Below, piece after piece: positions 51,761-60,024 of a stretch of DNA of 64,000 nt. Below the pieces are notes generated by a model, which saw nothing but the letters and a program-made list of their open reading frames with translations, had not been told where the DNA came from and searched no databases. This DNA is from an uncultured Eubacteriales bacterium (GTDB taxonomy: Bacteria > Acidobacteriota > Aminicenantia > Aminicenantales > Aminicenantaceae), in NCBI GenBank assembly GCA_964400735.1, contig CAYNVQ010000004.1, positions 315,042 through 379,041 on the forward strand. The letters run 5' to 3'. The translations under genes and the position numbers were made by a program. Positions within the stretch are counted from its first letter, which is position 1. Every line of letters starts with the position of its first letter.

Positions 51761-52816
51761 TCAGAGATTCTCCTCCTTGTCTTCTTCTCTGATCGTCAGA
51801 CCTGAAGGAGCGAAGGAGATGGGGATAGAATGAATTCCCTGTCCCAAAGAGTCGATCTCCCGCAGCATTCGGGATCTCAAGGATTCATCTTTGCTGCCTA
51901 GGATGGTCAAAGATCCGCCCTTTCCCCCTGCGCCGTTTACTTTCCATCCTGAAGCTTTGAATTTATGGGCAAGAGCGATAACCGCATTGGCCTCCTCGGA
52001 GATAAGACCTTCGTGCAGGGACCTCTGACACTCGTTGTTCTGGATCATGGTATCTCCGTAGCCTTCGAGGTCGCCTTGGAGCAGATGGTCCTTTGCCCTG
52101 GTAGCCAGAGCTCTCAAATCCCGGATGATTTTAAACTGAGCTCCCTTCTTTTCAAGGAAAGAGATGACCTCCTCATGCATGGCGGATGAGCTGTGGGATT
52201 GTCCCAGGTAAATTAAAGAGAGTCTTTTCCCTAGCTCCGTCCGGAGTTCTTCATCGAGATTCAGTTTCATCACATTCGCTTCGGGATATCTGTACATGTG
52301 GATGTAGCAAATCCCCCCGTGGGCAGCGGCCAGTTGATCCTGGATGCCGCTCTGCAAGCCGAGCTTTTCCGTTTCCACATTATGGGCCATGTAGGCGATT
52401 TCGTGCACCGAATGTTTCCGGGGAGACAGATGATCCAAAGCCCCGAGAAGAGCAACGCAAACCGAGGCCGATGTGCCAGTCGAGCTGCCAGCCGGTACAT
52501 GGGAGAAAAGAGTTATATGGAGCATGACTTCCTTCTGTATGGGGACAGAACTGATGGTTCCTTGGATCAACGGATGCTGGTCAAAGGCAGGTTTTTCGGG
52601 ATTCATCCACAATGCTTCGCCATAATTTTCCAGTCGCACCAAAACTCTCTGATCCAGATTTTCTTTATTTTCCAGCACTTGAAGACGAACCTCAACCAAA
52701 GGAAAAACGGCCATATTGAGAACCATCCCTTCTTCGGAGAACCACGTATCTGTCCAGCCTCCGATGTCATTGATGCGAATAGGGGCGATAGCGTGGATGG
52801 TTCGGAGGGGATTCAT
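51761..52816 (-). CDS. GHMP-family sugar kinase (HddA/fucokinase-like)
   Basis: I place the start at ATG 52816. APIRINDIGGWTDTWF (GGWTD motif) and the GHMP motif PAGSSTGTSASVCVALLGAL are present. Confidence 0.8.
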   Translation of the reverse strand: MNPLRTIHAIAPIRINDIGGWTDTWFSEEGMVLNMAVFPLVEVRLQVLENKENLDQRVLVRLENYGEALWMNPEKPAFDQHPLIQGTISSVPIQKEVMLHITLFSHVPAGSSTGTSASVCVALLGALDHLSPRKHSVHEIAYMAHNVETEKLGLQSGIQDQLAAAHGGICYIHMYRYPEANVMKLNLDEELRTELGKRLSLIYLGQSHSSSAMHEEVISFLEKKGAQFKIIRDLRALATRAKDHLLQGDLEGYGDTMIQNNECQRSLHEGLISEEANAVIALAHKFKASGWKVNGAGGKGGSLTILGSKDESLRSRMLREIDSLGQGIHSIPISFAPSGLTIREEDKEENL

Positions 52817-53020
52817 GACGCTGAATAATATATGAAGAATCAGTCTCCAAATCAAGGGGGTCAAGGGGGGACGCTCCTTAAGGAACCACCCTATTCCGGT
52901 GGTTACTGCAAAACTTGAACCAGGAAGAAAGCATGCAGGATGCTTTCCATAACTCGATAAAATTTGACATCGAGATTGTTCCTCAATAATATGACTCTAT
53001 CTTTTTTTGGAGGGAGAAAG

Positions 53021-54937: not shown

Positions 54938-56326
54938 ATGCTCCACCAGGAGCATCAAAGAGAGTGGATGCTTATGAGAGAAGAAAAAGACGGAGAGAAA
55001 ATCTCCATCATCAAACAGATCGTAACAAAATTGAAAGATGAGAATCTAGCCCCCTGGAAAGTGGAAGAAGAGCTGGGGAATGTTTACGGTATCGAGCCTG
55101 GGCAGATGTACACTATGGCGGCTCTTTGCCGCCAGCGATTTGTGGAGGATTTAACAGGAGAGAAATTCCGATATATCATCGTTCCGGACCGGGCCTACAA
55201 ACAGGGTTTTCTTTGTGAAAAGGAAGGTCTGAGGTGGGAGCTGGATGCCAGAGACGAAAGCCGCACATGTTCGCTCTGTGGCTCTGATTTGAAGCCTTTG
55301 GCTCAATATGCTCCCCTGGTGGCGAATTATATCGGAGGAACAGAAGCCTATTTTTCCTATGCCGGACAAATCGACGTCAAAGGCGACGTTCAGAAAAAAT
55401 TCACCAATCTTCTCGTTTACGGAACAGGGCTGGGCCCCATCGGAGTGACCAGAGGGTGCTATTTGTTGAATAAACTGGGCGGAGCCGAAGTAAGGGTGAC
55501 CGAGTTGGCGCGGGCCGCCCGTTGCCTGGGATTCATTCTGGGGTCGGAAAATGCGCGAAGAAAGGCCATTGAGTGTATCCAGGCATTTTTACCCCAGGCC
55601 AGGAAAAAGATGCAGGAAGAGATGTCCGAGTTCGACGGCCAGATCAGTACGGTTGATTTTGATCAGGCCGAAACAGAAAGAGGATTTATTCTTTATGTGG
55701 AGTTTGTGGCCGATTTTCTCAATTTTCGCGGACATGGAGATATCAGCCGTGCTGTAGGTTCGATAAAGAAAGAGATAGAGCAGCGACTTCGGACCCAGGG
55801 CATCGAGTACAGCCTCAGTGTGATCGCTCAGGGACATGACGGGGACCTCAAACCCAGCCCCCAGAACAAAAGGGGGCGGTTCGTGTCGGCTCAACTTCGG
55901 ATTCCGGCTTCTGAGTTTAAAGGACTGCTGAAGGTCGAGCCGGAAAAATTTCTCTCTTCCGTGGAGGTCGATGGCGTGGGGGCTCGAAGACTAGGCTGCC
56001 AATTTTATTCAGGAATGGGAGGTGAAATCATTCCTGCGGTTTACAAGGCCACCAAGGTCAATCCTCATAGCCCTTTGGTTTCTTGTTTTCAGAATATTCA
56101 TTGTGGAATAGAGGGAGGAGATGTCCTCTATAGGGTAGAGCTGCCCAATGTAGAGGTGGGAGTCGTATCCTGCCGCGAAGGTCTGGTGTCACCCGTTGGC
56201 AGGGAGGCGATGCGGATTATGGGCATCCATACGGCCATAGAATTCACGGTTTCGGTGGCGGCCCAAGTACTGGCTGGAGAATTCAATCTAGCCCTGGAAA
56301 TATCGAGAGAGAAATTGTACAACTGA
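54938..56326 (+). CDS. divergent HMG-CoA-reductase-fold protein with non-canonical active-site motifs
   Basis: Segments align by eye with HMGR motifs:
- ANYIGG...AG...TRGCYLLNKLGG versus ENVIG...AGP...NRGCRAIGLGG.
- LYVEF...RGHGDISRA versus LYIRF...AMGMNMISKG.
- GDLKPSPQNKRGRFVSAQLRIPA versus [26 protein letters not shown].
- LPNVEVGVVSCRE versus MPSIEIGTVGGGT.
- VLAGEFNLAL versus VMAGELSLMA. Confidence 0.5.
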   Translation: MLHQEHQREWMLMREEKDGEKISIIKQIVTKLKDENLAPWKVEEELGNVYGIEPGQMYTMAALCRQRFVEDLTGEKFRYIIVPDRAYKQGFLCEKEGLRWELDARDESRTCSLCGSDLKPLAQYAPLVANYIGGTEAYFSYAGQIDVKGDVQKKFTNLLVYGTGLGPIGVTRGCYLLNKLGGAEVRVTELARAARCLGFILGSENARRKAIECIQAFLPQARKKMQEEMSEFDGQISTVDFDQAETERGFILYVEFVADFLNFRGHGDISRAVGSIKKEIEQRLRTQGIEYSLSVIAQGHDGDLKPSPQNKRGRFVSAQLRIPASEFKGLLKVEPEKFLSSVEVDGVGARRLGCQFYSGMGGEIIPAVYKATKVNPHSPLVSCFQNIHCGIEGGDVLYRVELPNVEVGVVSCREGLVSPVGREAMRIMGIHTAIEFTVSVAAQVLAGEFNLALEISREKLYN

Positions 56327-56375: not shown

Positions 56376-57023
56376 ATGACGAAGGACAGGCCCGACCATC
56401 GCTCGATGGACATCCCTGCCCTATTGAAAAACCTGGGTTATCTCAAGAAGCTAAAAAAGGGAGAGATCCTTTTCACCCCGAATCAGGCTGCCGCTGGATT
56501 CTACTATGTTCTATCCGGAGAGATACGCGTGTACAAGATGGATGAACAGGGCAGGGAAGTGGAAGTGGTCCGAGTGGGACCCGGCGGATTTCTCGGAGAA
56601 GCCATCGTTTTTGCCTTACCGATGTTTACGGCTTTTGCCCAGGCCGTGAAAGATTCTCAGGGGCTGTTTTTTGATAAAAAAGAAATCGACAAAGAAATCG
56701 AGGCCAATCCTGGCCTCGCCAAATTTTTTATAACTCTGATGGCCCACAAGTGTGTGGTTTTAAGCAACAGGATCGAATCGCTGGAGCTCAGGACGGTTCG
56801 TCAGAGACTGATTCAATACCTTCTCACCCGTTGTTCAGGAGATAATAGATGTCTGGTGGAGTTAAAGATCAAAAAGACGGAGTTGGCCAAGATTTTAGGC
56901 ACAATCAGCGAGACCTTATCGCGCAACCTGAAACAGATGCAGGATGAAGGATTGATCGAGGTCAGAGGAAATAAAATCCTCGTCAAAAATTGCCCCTCCC
57001 TAAGAAACGAACTCACTCGTTAA
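56376..57023 (+). CDS. Crp/Fnr-family transcriptional regulator (HcpR-like context)
   Basis: The cNMP-binding-type beta-barrel is FYYVLSGEIRVYKMDEQGREVEVVRVGPGGFLGEA. The C-terminal HTH is KTELAKILGTISETLSRNLKQMQDEGLI. No N-terminal Fnr-type cysteine cluster is present. Confidence 0.85.
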   Translation: MTKDRPDHRSMDIPALLKNLGYLKKLKKGEILFTPNQAAAGFYYVLSGEIRVYKMDEQGREVEVVRVGPGGFLGEAIVFALPMFTAFAQAVKDSQGLFFDKKEIDKEIEANPGLAKFFITLMAHKCVVLSNRIESLELRTVRQRLIQYLLTRCSGDNRCLVELKIKKTELAKILGTISETLSRNLKQMQDEGLIEVRGNKILVKNCPSLRNELTR

Positions 57024-57038
57024 TCCCAAAAAATCTTT

Positions 57039-57052
57039 TTGACTTAAGTCAA
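57039..57052. promoter_or_regulatory. perfect FNR/CRP-type palindrome TTGACTTAAGTCAA upstream of the ferredoxin gene
   Basis: The sequence is TTGAC-N4-GTCAA, centred between 57045 and 57046. A TATTAT hexamer lies at 57075-57080. That places the box at about -41.5, which is class II activation geometry. A Crp/Fnr gene lies immediately upstream. Confidence 0.6.
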
Positions 57053-57116: not shown

Positions 57117-57956
57117 ATGGCTAATAGACAAATTATCGAGATCGACAGGGAGAAATGCGACGGATGCGGGTTGTGCACAGAAGCCTGTGCCGAGGGCGCT
57201 CTGATGCTGGATGAGGAAGGCAAGGTTGTTTTGGCGAAGGAAATTTATTGTGACGGCATGGGAGCCTGTTTGGATGTCTGCCCGACTGGAGCCTTGAAGA
57301 TTATAGAGAGAGAAGGGGAAGCGTACGATGCCCAAAAAACCTATCGCCATGTATTAAAGACCCGGGGCAGAGAGGCAGCAGAAAACGTGCACGGGATCCA
57401 TTCGAGGGTGGATTCCCGGCATCTTCGGGAAGAAGGCCAGCAGAGTTCGATTCCACCCTTGGCCTGTGGTTGTCCGGGAAGCATGGCCCAGGAAATCAAA
57501 AAGCCGGCTTCTCCTCAGGATGGAATAACCATATCCGGTTCTTCCGAGTTGAGCCAGTGGCCGATCCAGATGCATCTGGTCTCTCCCTACGCCCCTTATT
57601 TCGATCACAGCGATCTTCTGATTGCCGCCGACTGCACAGCTTTTGCACTGGGGAGTTTTCATCAGGATCTCTTGAAGGGGAAAAAATTGGTCATTGCCTG
57701 TCCCAAACTGGATGATACCGCAGGGTATGTTGAAAAGATGGCTGAGATTCTTAAAAATAACACAGTCTATTCGCTCACGGTGGCGACGATGGTGGTTCCC
57801 TGTTGTTCCGGGCTGGCCCGGATGGCGGAAAAAGCCGTGGAGATGTCCGGGATTGGTGTCCCCATAAAGAAGATCGTCATCGGCATCGATGGAGAAGTCA
57901 TGGCCGAGAAAAGACAGCCGGAACGAAAGGTTCCGTCAGGGCCGGTCCTCTCCTGA
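57117..57956 (+). CDS. 2x[4Fe-4S] ferredoxin-domain protein with a cysteine-containing C-terminal domain (FrdX-like)
   Basis: CDGCGLCTEACAEG and CDGMGACLDVCPTG are cluster motifs. Further Cys motifs are LACGCPGS, AADCTAF, IACPKLDD and VVPCCSGL. Confidence 0.8.
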   Translation: MANRQIIEIDREKCDGCGLCTEACAEGALMLDEEGKVVLAKEIYCDGMGACLDVCPTGALKIIEREGEAYDAQKTYRHVLKTRGREAAENVHGIHSRVDSRHLREEGQQSSIPPLACGCPGSMAQEIKKPASPQDGITISGSSELSQWPIQMHLVSPYAPYFDHSDLLIAADCTAFALGSFHQDLLKGKKLVIACPKLDDTAGYVEKMAEILKNNTVYSLTVATMVVPCCSGLARMAEKAVEMSGIGVPIKKIVIGIDGEVMAEKRQPERKVPSGPVLS

Positions 57957-58181: not shown

Positions 58182-58574
58182 ATGAAAAAGGCATTATCAT
58201 CTCTTACCTTACTCGCTTTTTTGATAGGCTTAGGCGCTGCACTCTCCTATGGCCAAGATGTTGATCTGACCGGTACCTGGAGGGGATCCACCGAGGTCCC
58301 TGATCAAGGGACGGATGAGATGACCCTGGTGATTAAAAAGGAAAATGGTGAATTAAGCGGAACGGTTACTGACAGCTTCGGCATGATGATGGATACAGAA
58401 TGTGAGGAAATGGAATACAAAGATGGAACGCTTACCTTCAACTTTACTATCTTTATGGGATCAGAATCGATGACTGTCTGGATCAATCTCACGGTAGAGG
58501 GCGATGAGATGAACGGATACTGGGAAGTGGCTGACGGGAGTCAGGGGGATATCCATTTCGAAAAAGAGAAATAG
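58182..58574 (+). CDS. small exported protein
   Basis: It has a strong RBS (AAAGGAGA) and a signal peptide (LIGLGAALSYG). It is 130 aa and beta-rich. Confidence 0.55.
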   Translation: MKKALSSLTLLAFLIGLGAALSYGQDVDLTGTWRGSTEVPDQGTDEMTLVIKKENGELSGTVTDSFGMMMDTECEEMEYKDGTLTFNFTIFMGSESMTVWINLTVEGDEMNGYWEVADGSQGDIHFEKEK

Positions 58575-58941
58575 CCCCAGTTGAAAGTTATATAGATATA
58601 GGCCGGGCTCCCCGTTAAATCATTGAAATTTCTATAATATTTTATTCCTTGTATTAGAGTTATCCGTTGGAATTTTTGTCCTAATGTCAATGCATTGATT
58701 AATGTTACATAGTCATGGCAAGTGACCAAAGGGAATATGGCTGTCTTTGAGATTGCTTCGCTCTGCTCGAACGATGGATCGCCAAGTCGTTTCACTCCTC
58801 GTGATGAGACAGGAATTAGACAGAAATAAATACATTGGTAATAGCTGATTGTACCGGCATTTTTCATGGTTAATTCATTCTAAACAGTTGAGAATTGAGA
58901 TTTCTCAAAGATAAAAAAAAATGGGGGAGTGTAATCGAGTT

Positions 58942-60024
58942 ATGAGAAAAAAGAGCAGGATACTCCGTTTTCTTCTCTTCTTTTGCTTAAGCATGGGTCT
59001 AGTTTGGCCTCAGAACAAGATCGAGCTGAGCATACAAAAAGTTCTGGAGATTGGCCGGGATAGTCTTATGTTCGGTTCAATTGCCTCTGTCGTCGAAGAT
59101 GAAGAGTCCAATTTTTATATCCTGGACAGGATGGAACACAAAGTTTACAAATTCTCGCCCGATGGGAAACTTCTCCTTTCTTTCGGGCGAAAAGGACAGG
59201 GACCGGGGGATTTTCAAAATCCTCACCTGCTCGCTTATTCTTCCAAAAGACAGCTCGTTGTCGCCGATGATCTTTACAATCTGTCATTCTTGAACCCGGA
59301 TGGATCATTTATCGAGCGGATCCATCTGGACGGCCGTCTTGGTATCGGTTACATCGGGGAGGACCGGTTTTATGGCTGGGATTGGGAGGAGCAGGGCCGA
59401 AGCCAGGTCATGGTCGACAGCCGGAACGACATCATCGAGACTTTTTTCCATGTTTCGAGAGAGGCATTTTCCGCATCTGCTCCCGATAGCAGCGGCCGGT
59501 TGGTCATGTTCAATTATTCCCGGGAAGAATTTTCCCCTTCGCTCATTTTTGCCCATTCTGGCTCATATTCTGCCGTGGGAATTGGAGATACCTATGACAT
59601 TTCTATCCTGGATGGACAGGGAAAGACCGTTGTCCGAATAAAGAGGGATATCGAAGCTGAAGATTTCAGCAAGAATGAAAAGCAATTTTTTGAAGAGGAT
59701 ATAGAAGAATACGGAAAGGAGCGCGGCTGGCCCAAAAGTGTCATCCGGGCCCTTCTAAAAAAAATTCCGGATAAAAAAATTTATTTTGACCAGGTTTTAT
59801 TGACAGAGAAGTATGTGTTCGTCTTCAGAATCAAAAAGAATATAGCGGACGATGAAGGCCATATTCCGGCGGATCTTTTCACGATAGACGGAAAATTCCT
59901 GGGTGACGTCACAGTTGAGGAAAAGCCTGTTCATATATCGGACAAACACATGTATTTTGTCCGGTCGGATGAGGAAGGGAATGTGTTCTTGGAAAAGGCG
60001 ACCTATCAGATCGGCCTGAAATGA
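58942..60024 (+). CDS. exported 6-bladed beta-propeller (NHL/TolB-like) protein
   Basis: A signal peptide follows ATG 58942 (MRKKSRILRFLLFFCLSMG). GRKGQGPGDFQNPHLL is an NHL-like motif. An alternative start is ATG 58921. Confidence 0.6.
   Translation: MRKKSRILRFLLFFCLSMGLVWPQNKIELSIQKVLEIGRDSLMFGSIASVVEDEESNFYILDRMEHKVYKFSPDGKLLLSFGRKGQGPGDFQNPHLLAYSSKRQLVVADDLYNLSFLNPDGSFIERIHLDGRLGIGYIGEDRFYGWDWEEQGRSQVMVDSRNDIIETFFHVSREAFSASAPDSSGRLVMFNYSREEFSPSLIFAHSGSYSAVGIGDTYDISILDGQGKTVVRIKRDIEAEDFSKNEKQFFEEDIEEYGKERGWPKSVIRALLKKIPDKKIYFDQVLLTEKYVFVFRIKKNIADDEGHIPADLFTIDGKFLGDVTVEEKPVHISDKHMYFVRSDEEGNVFLEKATYQIGLK

Follow-up and report, generated by a model that had tools for sequence, protein, structure and literature searches.

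What does the fold of HMG-CoA reductase (HMGR; HMG, 3-hydroxy-3-methylglutaryl; CoA, coenzyme A) do once its active site has been replaced? HMGR is the target of the statins and among the most studied of enzymes, and to our knowledge its superfamily is considered uniform in function, the fold being treated as essentially a one-reaction scaffold. The question is raised by a gene on the + strand (54938–56326) of a 64,000-nucleotide (nt) stretch of DNA from an uncultured bacterium of the Aminicenantaceae (assembly GCA_964400735.1, contig CAYNVQ010000004.1, positions 315,042–379,041; hereafter the window). The gene encodes an HMGR-like protein which a first-pass annotation of the window had taken for a repurposed HMGR scaffold rather than a housekeeping HMGR. 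That reading is upheld here, with significant fold and homology, replacement of the four catalytic residues (the histidine being absent altogether) and replacement of both motifs that bind reduced nicotinamide adenine dinucleotide phosphate (NADPH). The explanation preferred, and given an even chance, is that the protein belongs to a strongly conserved and so far undescribed branch within the class I HMGR superfamily, made up of acyl-CoA-binding enzymes that work independently of NAD(P)H.

Gene model, fold and class I descent

The list of open reading frames (ORFs) contains an intact frame of 462 amino acids (aa) at 54938–56326, although the protein is probably 450 aa long, starting from the ATG at 54974 (M13). 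Nearly all of the 352 homologues retrieved by homology search are about 450 aa long, with an N-terminus level with M13, so that translation may in fact begin at the ATG at 54974; a GGAG 5 nt ahead of 54938 leaves the choice unsettled. In the databases these homologues are labelled “hypothetical protein” or, misleadingly, “hydroxymethylglutaryl-CoA reductase”. NCBIfam has no model dedicated to the family, and no description of it was found in the searchable literature on HMGR-like proteins, HMGR paralogs and homologs, Aminicenantes and lost catalytic residues. The fold is known; the family and its active site are undescribed.

Residues 170–457 match the Pfam profile PF00368 (HMG-CoA_red) at 37.0 bits (gathering cutoff, 27; E 2.7e-9). 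A single-sequence search of the PDB retrieved the archaeal class I HMGR 6hr7 at E 1.4e-7, and a search with the family profile gave 6hr7 at E 1.7e-13 and Arabidopsis HMG1 (8ecg) at ~3e-5. An AlphaFold2 model built from a 35-sequence alignment (mean predicted local distance difference test score, 89.2; predicted template-modelling score, 0.88) was submitted to Foldseek, and the best 50 matches were all HMGR structures, led by 6hr7/6hr8 (E 2.7e-24), with human 1dqa and others following at ~1e-19; the alignment spans about 449 columns, and template-modelling scores are 0.62–0.73. The profile search and the structure comparison, both proposed in the first-pass annotation as checks, therefore each return HMGR, and the HMGR motifs that it had aligned block by block are all present and, when their coordinates are checked, in the order given.

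With regard to class, the NCBIfam scan at E ≤1 matched only TIGR00533, the equivalog model of (class I) NADPH-dependent HMGR, with 44.7 bits against a cutoff of 441.8 (about one-tenth of the cutoff); the class II model was not matched, and class II structures were not among the matches of the PDB sequence searches. The cis-loop, AQGHDGDLKPS, aligns with (S/A)GN...DKKP, and the N-domain helices align with those of 6hr7 and of P0182, a genuine archaeal class I HMGR. On these alignments the HMGR-like protein is judged to derive from class I HMGR.

Replacement of the catalytic and cofactor-binding residues

Residues were mapped from HMMER and MAFFT alignments (phmmer, and hmmsearch against 6hr7), and conservation was counted over 105 non-redundant full-length members of the family in four subfamilies, to which the residue counts below refer; all coordinates within the gene are on the + strand. 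In human HMGR the catalytic residues are Glu559, Lys691, Asp767 and His866, which together with Ser684, Asp690, Lys692, Lys735, Asn755 and Leu853 form the HMG site; the CoA site includes Ser565, Asn567, Arg568, Lys722 and Tyr479, the last of which stacks on the CoA adenine, and the NADPH site includes Asp653 to Asn658, Val805 and others (PMC7503714).

In the HMGR-like protein the alignments place T163 at Glu559, L304 at Lys691 and N375 at Asp767, and His866 has no counterpart, in agreement with the earlier claim that the functional positions differ. The segment YGTGLGPIGVTRG (55418–55456), the counterpart of (A)TTEG...NRG, carries T163 at a position that is Pro in 50 members, Thr in 47, Ser in 5 and Ala in 3, and never acidic. 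In the cis-loop equivalent AQGHDGDLKPSPQNKRGR (55826–55879), D303 corresponds to Asp690 and K305 to Lys692, L304 takes the place of the catalytic Lys691, a position that is always hydrophobic (Leu 91, Tyr 8, Phe 3, Val 3), and D301, N310, R312 and R314 are invariant. The stretch YSGMGGEIIPA...NP (56006–56065) replaces (F/Y)NAHxANI...GQD, His752 being changed to M360, Asn755 to E363 and the catalytic Asp767 to N375, all three of them invariant replacements. The changes at Lys691 and Asp767 are additions to the earlier list. A charge reversal is found at D345 (55970–55972; phmmer and hmmsearch alignments to 6hr7), which we take to be the position of the HMG-binding Lys735 and which is Asp in 101 members and Glu in 4; the human numbers for Lys735, Tyr479 and Arg590 of MTRxP were reached by counting from motifs and are provisional, and the motif equivalences were read from the alignments.

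At the C-terminus, AGEFNLALEISREKLYN and the stop codon that follows it (56273–56326; alignment to 8ecg) keep the AGE(L/F)xL helix, with AGEFNL for AGELSL, and the chain ends (...EKLYN-stop) two residues ahead of the Ser865–His866 position. Tails of 0–5 aa are found in nearly all of the 105 members, and a His at the His866 position in none. The first-pass annotation was right that the catalytic His is absent, but it had put this down to loss of the flap; given the class I derivation of the protein, the class II flap of Pseudomonas mevalonii HMGR is the wrong reference, and what the protein lacks is the last part of the C-terminal helix found in class I.

The cofactor site is rewritten as well. 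An S-domain equivalent of β-α-β-β-α-β topology occupies 55508–55825 (strands 191–201, 235–246, 249–260 and 291–296 and helices 204–228 and 266–286 in the AlphaFold2 model), and within it NFRGHG (55721–55738), with invariant R264 and H266, stands in place of the NADPH motif DAMGMN; R195 (55520–55522), also invariant, is placed at the Arg of MTR(A/G)P. The second NADPH loop, PSIE(I/V)GTVGGGT, is replaced by ELPNVEVGVVSCREG (56138–56182), where the counterpart of GTVGGGT reads GVVSCREG in the window protein and GVVS(C/S)REG in the family, and where E406, E414 and G415 are invariant in a register made ambiguous by an indel of 2–4 aa. Both replacements had been recognized in the first-pass annotation; its labels need correction, since DAMGMN and GTVGGGT are NADPH-binding motifs and not catalytic ones.

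On the substrate side, W40, R195, D303, K305 and L/F451 are retained across the family. The protein departs from a functional HMGR (EC 1.1.1.34/1.1.1.88) in its score against the TIGR00533 cutoff, at Glu559, Lys691, Asp767 and His866, and in both NAD(P)H-binding motifs, and as read from the alignments it cannot act as an HMG-CoA reductase.

The N-domain and a zinc-ribbon-like insertion

Residues 14–88 (54977–55201) form a helical equivalent of the class I N-domain, with helices 2–33, 39–50 and 54–73 in the AlphaFold2 model. Residues ~20–88 can be aligned to the N-terminal ends of 6hr7 and P0182, the stretch scoring −1.8 bits against 6hr7, which is not significant by itself. W40 (55055–55057) is present in 104 of the 105 members, the remaining one having a gap there, and from motif matching it probably occupies the position of the CoA-adenine-stacking Tyr479 (the Tyr of “eikpYqlddl”).

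The N-domain is followed by a zinc-ribbon-like insertion at residues 89–120 (55202–55297) with the pattern C93-x2-[D/E/H/C]96-x14-C111-x2-C114, which in the window protein is a β-hairpin with Glu at position 96. C93, C111 and C114 are invariant in all 105 members; position 96 is Asp in 85, His in 8, Glu in 7, Cys in 4 and Asn in 1, and in a distant member, P0123, the CxxC...CxxC pattern is complete. HMGRs and an archaeal sister clade described below have a gap over this region (alignment, hhalign). The insertion bears what appears to be the signature of a zinc ribbon, and metal binding is predicted. C28 was considered as a fourth metal ligand and set aside, being conserved among Aminicenantes and not outside them; position 96 (D/E/H/C) is the better candidate. 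A DUF35 identity was likewise not adopted, as the insertion gave no significant Pfam match and only weak generic zinc-ribbon matches (E ~0.02). Of the N-terminal extension of 120 aa said earlier to be absent from HMGR, about 30 aa (89–120) are indeed new and most is an ordinary class I N-domain. The insertion is followed by ANYIGG (55322–55339; Y131 and G134 invariant), which the alignments identify as the counterpart of ENVIG, the dimer-interface strand of HMGR (PMC7503714).

The invariance of C93, C111 and C114, the retained S-domain fold and the new invariant R264-G-H266-G loop at the dinucleotide site would fit an oxidoreductase or acyl-CoA reductase that uses another cofactor or electron donor, bound by the rewritten S-domain (NADH held in an altered way, F420, a flavin or a metal at the Cys cluster, perhaps working with ferredoxin). 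Such a redox role is considered clearly improbable, as C-x2-[DEHC]-x14-C-x2-C on a β-hairpin is the pattern of a structural zinc ribbon and not of a redox cluster; gene contexts and the one known precedent, taken up below, also bear on it.

Conservation and distribution of the family

An exhaustive HMMER scan of 1.84 billion cluster representatives delimited a compact family, and locus scans of one-genome-per-species and metagenome contigs yielded 140 loci. In the score profile, the family is separated by a gap from ~490 to ~105 bits from the sister clade, which is followed by genuine HMGRs at ≤60 bits. The 105 homologues come from at least 8 phyla-level groups and fall into four subfamilies with 39–48% identity between them, members overall being 39–87% identical. 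Subfamily A, to which the window protein belongs, covers Aminicenantes with KSB1 and TA06; subfamily B covers Scalinduaceae and Pirellulaceae with Thermoplasmatota archaea; subfamily C covers Zixibacteria and Thermodesulfobacteriota; and subfamily D is a marine-sediment metagenomic lineage. Copies from Thermoplasmatota (L047, L051, L053) are 66–76% identical to those of Scalinduaceae and Pirellulaceae (L040–L063), against 39–48% between bacterial subfamilies, which indicates that the family has moved between bacteria and archaea by recent horizontal transfer.

Forty-three positions are invariant in the 105 members, among them R195, R264, H266, D301, D303, K305, N310, R312, R314, G359, M360, G361 and E363, as well as N375, P376, E406, E414, R422, E423, E448, N450 and Y461. 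The motifs that define the family, namely the Cys insert, R-G-H-G, (H/Y/F)DGD(L/Y/F)KPS..N(K/R)RGR, (S/T)GMG(G/A)E, N-P and a terminal (L/M)Y followed by 0–5 aa, are all found in the window protein and in 105 of 105 members. Strong purifying selection on the family is evident from this alignment, and the replacement residues appear constrained to the degree usual for catalytic sites. Because the replacements are invariant in 105 homologues, the branch is read as a case of neofunctionalization or of a conserved binding role, and not of decay.

An ordinary mevalonate-pathway HMGR of class I or II, or a decaying pseudogene of one, has next to no probability as an explanation. Labels of “hydroxymethylglutaryl-CoA reductase” on some homologues, the match to PF00368 and a GHMP-family kinase gene two genes upstream (51761–52864, − strand) might suggest it. 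All 105 members nonetheless lack the four catalytic residues (Glu, Lys, Asp, His) as well as the NADPH motifs, and the equivalog score is the 44.7 bits against 441.8 given above; a class II identity was rejected on the same catalytic residues and score together with the conservation of the family. A decaying pseudogene was rejected because the frame is intact, the members are 39–87% identical and 43 sites are invariant. The GHMP kinase, syntenic only in the closest relatives, was not accepted as a mevalonate kinase: it scored 72 bits against the 163 of TIGR00549 and had a slightly better sub-threshold match (79 bits) to heptose-7-phosphate kinase, remaining below every equivalog cutoff. A component of anti-phage defence was also rejected, a PADLOC run having given no meaningful match, and so was a viral or auxiliary metabolic gene, as IMG/VR held no relative of the protein.

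The main rival to an enzymatic role is that of a true pseudoenzyme, a non-catalytic sensor, regulator or scaffold that would bind a metabolite or partner proteins through the old HMG-CoA/CoA pocket, or through the dimer interface and the zinc ribbon. Loss of the whole catalytic tetrad speaks for this possibility; it is nevertheless held to be rather unlikely, as the 43 invariant residues are concentrated in the former active-site loops and include Glu, Asp, His and Arg, a distribution more typical of catalysis.

Acyl-CoA gene contexts in other lineages

Among the 140 loci, which form 25 groups at 75% identity, no neighbour is universal. In Scalinduaceae and Pirellulaceae, 22–23 loci have an SCP-x-type thiolase and a fusion of a zinc ribbon with 3-hydroxyacyl-CoA dehydrogenase immediately upstream on the same strand. 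In subfamily D the core consists of a MaoC-like (R)-hydratase (12 loci), the HMGR-like gene and a DLH/BAAT-like hydrolase (11 loci), with the start of the hydrolase gene adjoining the HMGR-like stop codon; often next are a family I CoA-transferase, a short-chain dehydrogenase/reductase (SDR) and a DctP solute-binding protein, and two divergent genes for the D-component of 2-hydroxyacyl-CoA dehydratase are also present (operon loci L133 4837–16982; L121, L123, L127, L128, L144 and L151; L147 5940–9062). At one of these loci, L147, the hydrolase is followed by phaE and phaC of a class III polyhydroxyalkanoate (PHA) synthase; as this is the only locus with PhaE/PhaC beside the HMGR-like gene, a PHA link is a hint at most. 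An Aminicenantes-like locus, L021, has a cluster of acyl-CoA dehydrogenase, 3-hydroxyacyl-CoA dehydrogenase (3HCDH) and thiolase genes a few kb off. Taken with the succinyl-CoA-synthetase (SCS)-like genes of the sister clade described below, these neighbours repeatedly involve the metabolism of short-chain CoA thioesters, centred on 3-hydroxy- and enoyl-acyl-CoA, and the context in these lineages points to acyl-CoA chemistry over redox chemistry. The separate encoding of SDR and 3HCDH dehydrogenases in the operons argues further against a reductase with another cofactor.

The same survey bears on the pseudoenzyme. In most lineages the HMGR-like gene stands alone with variable neighbours, as might be expected of a sensor or regulator, and genes with receiver domains are found nearby in four of the 75%-identity groups and Crp/Fnr genes in five; response regulators are, however, very common genes, and in these groups their position and strand vary. 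An association with response regulators was in fact not retained, architecture, offset and strand all differing, and is probably due to chance. The position of the subfamily D gene inside an enzyme operon is a further point against a non-catalytic role. On the other side, the zinc-ribbon insert could serve for docking, and the dehydrogenase encoded next to the planctomycete genes likewise has an N-terminal zinc ribbon. DUF35 proteins, which scaffold archaeal thiolase and HMGCS, offer an analogy for docking on thiolase/dehydrogenase complexes.

At the planctomycete loci (L040–L063; e.g. L055 7540–9801 and L058 8674–9798), the N-terminal CxxC...CxxC region of the dehydrogenase is about 95 aa long. 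It is reminiscent of DUF35 thiolase scaffolds and gave no significant Pfam match, only weak matches to generic zinc ribbons at E ~0.02, so that a DUF35 identity was not accepted for it.

An archaeal sister clade beside canonical HMGR

The sister clade (P0154, P0176, P0271–P0273 and others) also lacks the catalytic tetrad, and aligns with the family in hhalign with a probability of 100%, E 2e-41 and 26% identity. It shares with the family the derived motifs (A/G)G.DGD(L/M)(K/R)PS..N.RGR, a G-H in the old DAMG loop, GM..E(I/V), P..P.VSS and N.E.G...EG, and differs from it in having no zinc-ribbon insert, an Arg at the Glu559 position and a C-terminus of LAKTK or LGSE.YR. It is assigned to archaea because MCM and archaeal RNA polymerase subunits are encoded on the same contigs. 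As tetrad loss is common to both clades, the loss of HMGR chemistry predates their split.

The sister-clade loci (L006–L008 8001–10706; L009 7061–9699; L010 1850–3286) represent three distinct contexts. In two of the three the gene order is SCS-like beta, SCS-like alpha, HMGR-like and canonical HMGR, with a GHMP kinase ahead of the operon in one; the third contig has the SCS-like genes and the HMGR-like gene only. The sister-clade gene thus lies directly ahead of the canonical HMGR gene in L006–L009, the GHMP kinase being upstream in L006–L008. The adjoining HMGR has TTEG, DKKP, GQD and the C-terminal His. This arrangement suggests that the sister-clade protein may be a partner subunit of a true HMGR, in a heteromeric or pathway partnership that is seemingly undescribed; a non-catalytic partner subunit of this kind would be in line with the pseudoenzyme reading. 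The family of the window differs in that no such partner is found nearby. In the canonical HMGR of L006 (9456–10706), GAAMGMN is found for GDAMGMN, so that Asp653 of the NADPH motif is replaced, which may bear on cofactor preference.

Proposed function

In the explanation preferred here, the HMGR-like protein would be a dimer of HMGR type, as suggested by the retained ENVIG-like strand and helix bundle, and would still bind a CoA thioester or a similar anion in the old cleft, as suggested by W40, placed at the adenine-stacking position, by R195 and D303/K305, and by the AGE(F/L)xL helix. All residues for hydride transfer and both NADPH-binding motifs have been given up, and their place is taken by a new polar and glycine-rich constellation made up of R264, H266, D301, N310, R312, R314, D345, G359-M-G-G-E363, N375-P376, E406, E414, R422-E423 and the insert of three Cys (plus Asp, His or Cys). 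The activity would most likely be a conversion that needs no NAD(P)H, with a short acyl-CoA (3-hydroxy-, enoyl- or dicarboxy-) as substrate; the candidates are (de)hydration or epimerization at C3, decarboxylation of a CoA ester of glutaconyl type, and thioester cleavage. E363, at the Asn755 position by the thioester carbonyl, E406 and E414 are the putative acid/base groups, with D345 as a further acidic residue, and the Gly-rich loops GTGLGP, RGHG and GMGGE could form, from backbone groups, an oxyanion hole of the kind found in hydratases of the crotonase type or in cofactor-free decarboxylases acting on glutaconyl-type CoA esters. CoA-transferase, hydrolase, (R)-hydratase and dehydrogenase activities are already supplied by other genes of the operons, which makes a separate step more likely than any of these; hypothetically it might be an (S)-specific (de)hydration, an epimerization, a decarboxylation or a lyase cleavage.

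It is proposed more tentatively, as a possibility, that the HMGR fold has given rise to a second, cofactor-independent family with an active site of Gly loops rich in Glu, Asp and His, acting on short acyl-CoA esters (3-hydroxy-, enoyl- or dicarboxy-), either as a crotonase-like (de)hydratase/epimerase or as a glutaconyl-type decarboxylase. Such an enzyme would supply thiolase/3-hydroxyacyl-CoA dehydrogenase pathways, the fermentation of 2-hydroxyacids or the PHA pathway, and the transfer of the family between bacteria and archaea would have taken place in anoxic sediments (copies from Scalindua and Thermoplasmatota are 70–76% identical).

Several points weigh against an acyl-CoA enzyme. An acyl-CoA context is found in 2 of about 5 lineages and the sister clade, and no acyl-CoA neighbours were seen in the loci of the window's own Aminicenantes subfamily, of Zixibacteria or of Thermoplasmatota, so that the role of the window protein would be carried over by homology from subfamilies of 39–48% identity with which it shares the 43 invariant residues. 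R172, the equivalent of the CoA-phosphate-binding Arg568, is not conserved (Arg 48, Val 41, Lys 8, Ala 8); this, and the reversal of Lys735 to Asp, could mean that the ligand is not a CoA ester. A single pocket lined by the invariant residues and a metal site made up of the Cys residues are, moreover, predictions.

Genomic neighbourhood in the window

The genes around the HMGR-like gene are, in order, the GHMP kinase (−), a 605-aa esterase-like protein (+), the HMGR-like protein (+), a Crp/Fnr regulator (+), a 2x[4Fe-4S] protein (+) and a 130-aa secreted protein (+), an order kept in the closest relatives. The HcpR-like Crp/Fnr regulator (56376–57023, +; Pfam cNMP_binding and HTH_Crp_2) starts 50 bp downstream of the HMGR-like gene, and the 2x[4Fe-4S] ferredoxin-like protein (57117–57956, +; 279 aa) follows, an FrdX-like protein with Pfam Fer4 on residues 6–76 and a C-terminal domain; its L001 orthologue is assigned to PF27217. 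The first-pass annotation had correctly placed the HMGR-like gene directly upstream of the two, on the same strand. A perfect palindrome, TTGACTTAAGTCAA (57039–57052), precedes the ferredoxin-like gene by 65 nt and matches the HcpR motif wyTTGACnnnnGTCAArw, which is FNR-like and has been described upstream of hcp and frdX (PMC1274295).

Membership of the HMGR-like gene in an HcpR (Crp/Fnr) nitrosative-stress regulon, together with the regulator and the FrdX-like ferredoxin, would be in keeping with the shared strand, with the 50-bp gap, in which no terminator is predicted, and with the order HMGR-like–Crp being kept in five of the 75%-identity groups of Aminicenantes. This is very improbable in view of the wider survey. 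Crp/Fnr is found near the HMGR-like gene at 12 of the 140 loci, all from Aminicenantes (directly downstream at 11, one gene further at 1), leaving 128 without it, so that the neighbourhood survey suggested in the first-pass annotation does not bear out a conserved link. In 9 of 9 loci that reach the ferredoxin gene, a perfect or near-perfect TTGAC-N4-GTCAA box precedes it by ≤~70 nt, the other 3 of the 12 having a lone box near the end of the retrieved sequence, and the box is found upstream of the HMGR-like gene in 0 of 12. Loci with the boxed ferredoxin unit include L012–L014, L035, L088, L091, L118 and L140; in L012–L014 the ferredoxin gene has been displaced by kilobases and the box is retained. 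As the box accompanies the ferredoxin gene only, the regulator and the ferredoxin are best read as an independent HcpR/FrdX-type unit, a mere neighbour of the HMGR-like gene. The label “FrdX-type” given to the iron-sulfur protein in the first-pass annotation gains from the HcpR box ahead of its gene, and provides no functional context for the HMGR-like gene. The absence of a Crp box upstream of the HMGR-like gene also detracts from a regulatory pseudoenzyme, and the presence of a ferredoxin-like gene nearby in the window, which could be taken in favour of a ferredoxin-linked reductase, is lineage-specific and part of the HcpR-type unit.

Compared with the HcpR/FrdX module of delta-proteobacteria and clostridia, the two downstream genes have in common a Crp/Fnr regulator, a ferredoxin-like gene and TTGAC-N4-GTCAA upstream of the latter. 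They differ in that no hcp was found among the annotated ORFs of the window (no wider search for hcp was made), and the likeness to FrdX comes from the Fer4 domains and the box.

A second FNR-like palindrome, TTGAGATTTCTCAA (58895–58908), lies 13 nt upstream of a 367-aa ORF (58921–60024), whose L001 orthologue has a weak match to DUF5128; it may be a further target of the Crp/Fnr regulator. The 130-aa protein (58182–58574) has a signal-peptide-like N-terminus and no Pfam match, and is the most persistent neighbour in Aminicenantes, being found at 17 loci among L011–L071, usually immediately upstream of the HMGR-like gene; in the window it is 1.9 kb downstream. The region 31607–63131 is rich in genes of peptide and amino-acid catabolism (oligopeptide ABC transporter, Dpp5-like dipeptidyl-peptidase, C69 dipeptidase, Xaa-Pro aminopeptidase, gamma-glutamyltransferase and pyridoxal-phosphate (PLP) decarboxylase), consistent with a proteolytic, fermentative lifestyle of Aminicenantes.

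Comparison with known systems

The closest known relatives of the HMGR-like protein are the class I HMGRs (6hr7/6hr8 of Methanothermococcus thermolithotrophicus, human 1dqa, Arabidopsis 8ecg), with which it shares the three-domain fold, the N-domain, the ENVIG-like strand, the topology of the S-domain, the cis-loop and the AGE(L/F)xL helix, along with counterparts of Tyr479, the Arg of MTRxP, Asp690 and Lys692. It differs from them in lacking Glu559, Lys691, Asp767 and His866, in the rewriting of DAMGMN and GTVGGGT, in the changes of Asn755 to Glu, His752 to Met and Lys735 to Asp, in a zinc-ribbon-like insert of 30 aa and in a chain that stops ahead of the catalytic His, and its gene has no mevalonate-pathway neighbours. 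With class II HMGR (P. mevalonii 1qax) there is only a distant common fold. Class II enzymes lack the cis-loop and the N-domain and have a flap of ~50 residues (PMC7503714), whereas the HMGR-like protein has both cis-loop and N-domain and does not match the class II model.

If the explanation preferred here is true, the family would offer an unambiguous example of an old scaffold whose active site has been replaced, in a widespread and strongly conserved branch, and would add an unknown acyl-CoA step to abundant uncultured sediment lineages (Aminicenantes, the marine anammox Scalindua, Zixibacteria and Thermoplasmatota). When the metabolism of these metagenome-assembled genomes is reconstructed, the label “hydroxymethylglutaryl-CoA reductase”, given to some of the proteins by annotation pipelines, would falsely suggest a mevalonate pathway.

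The only documented departure from HMGR function found in the literature is FcrA, a haloarchaeal fatty acyl-CoA reductase derived from HMGR and described in 2025 (PMC11948995). FcrA and the HMGR-like family have in common the recruitment of an HMGR homologue to a non-mevalonate role, on another acyl-CoA, established for FcrA and proposed for the family. As an HMGR homologue with a changed substrate, FcrA could serve as a precedent for a reductase with another cofactor. An FcrA-type enzyme, however, has the tetrad retained and the acyl pocket altered, and the tetrad is absent here; because FcrA, the sole known repurposed HMGR homologue, keeps it, a redox role for the window protein becomes less likely. 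The two cases therefore represent different kinds of departure: in FcrA the catalytic machinery of Glu, Lys, Asp and His, the C-terminal helix and NADPH-dependent reduction are kept, whereas the HMGR-like family has lost all of these, including all four catalytic residues and the His-bearing C-terminal helix by which the site is closed.

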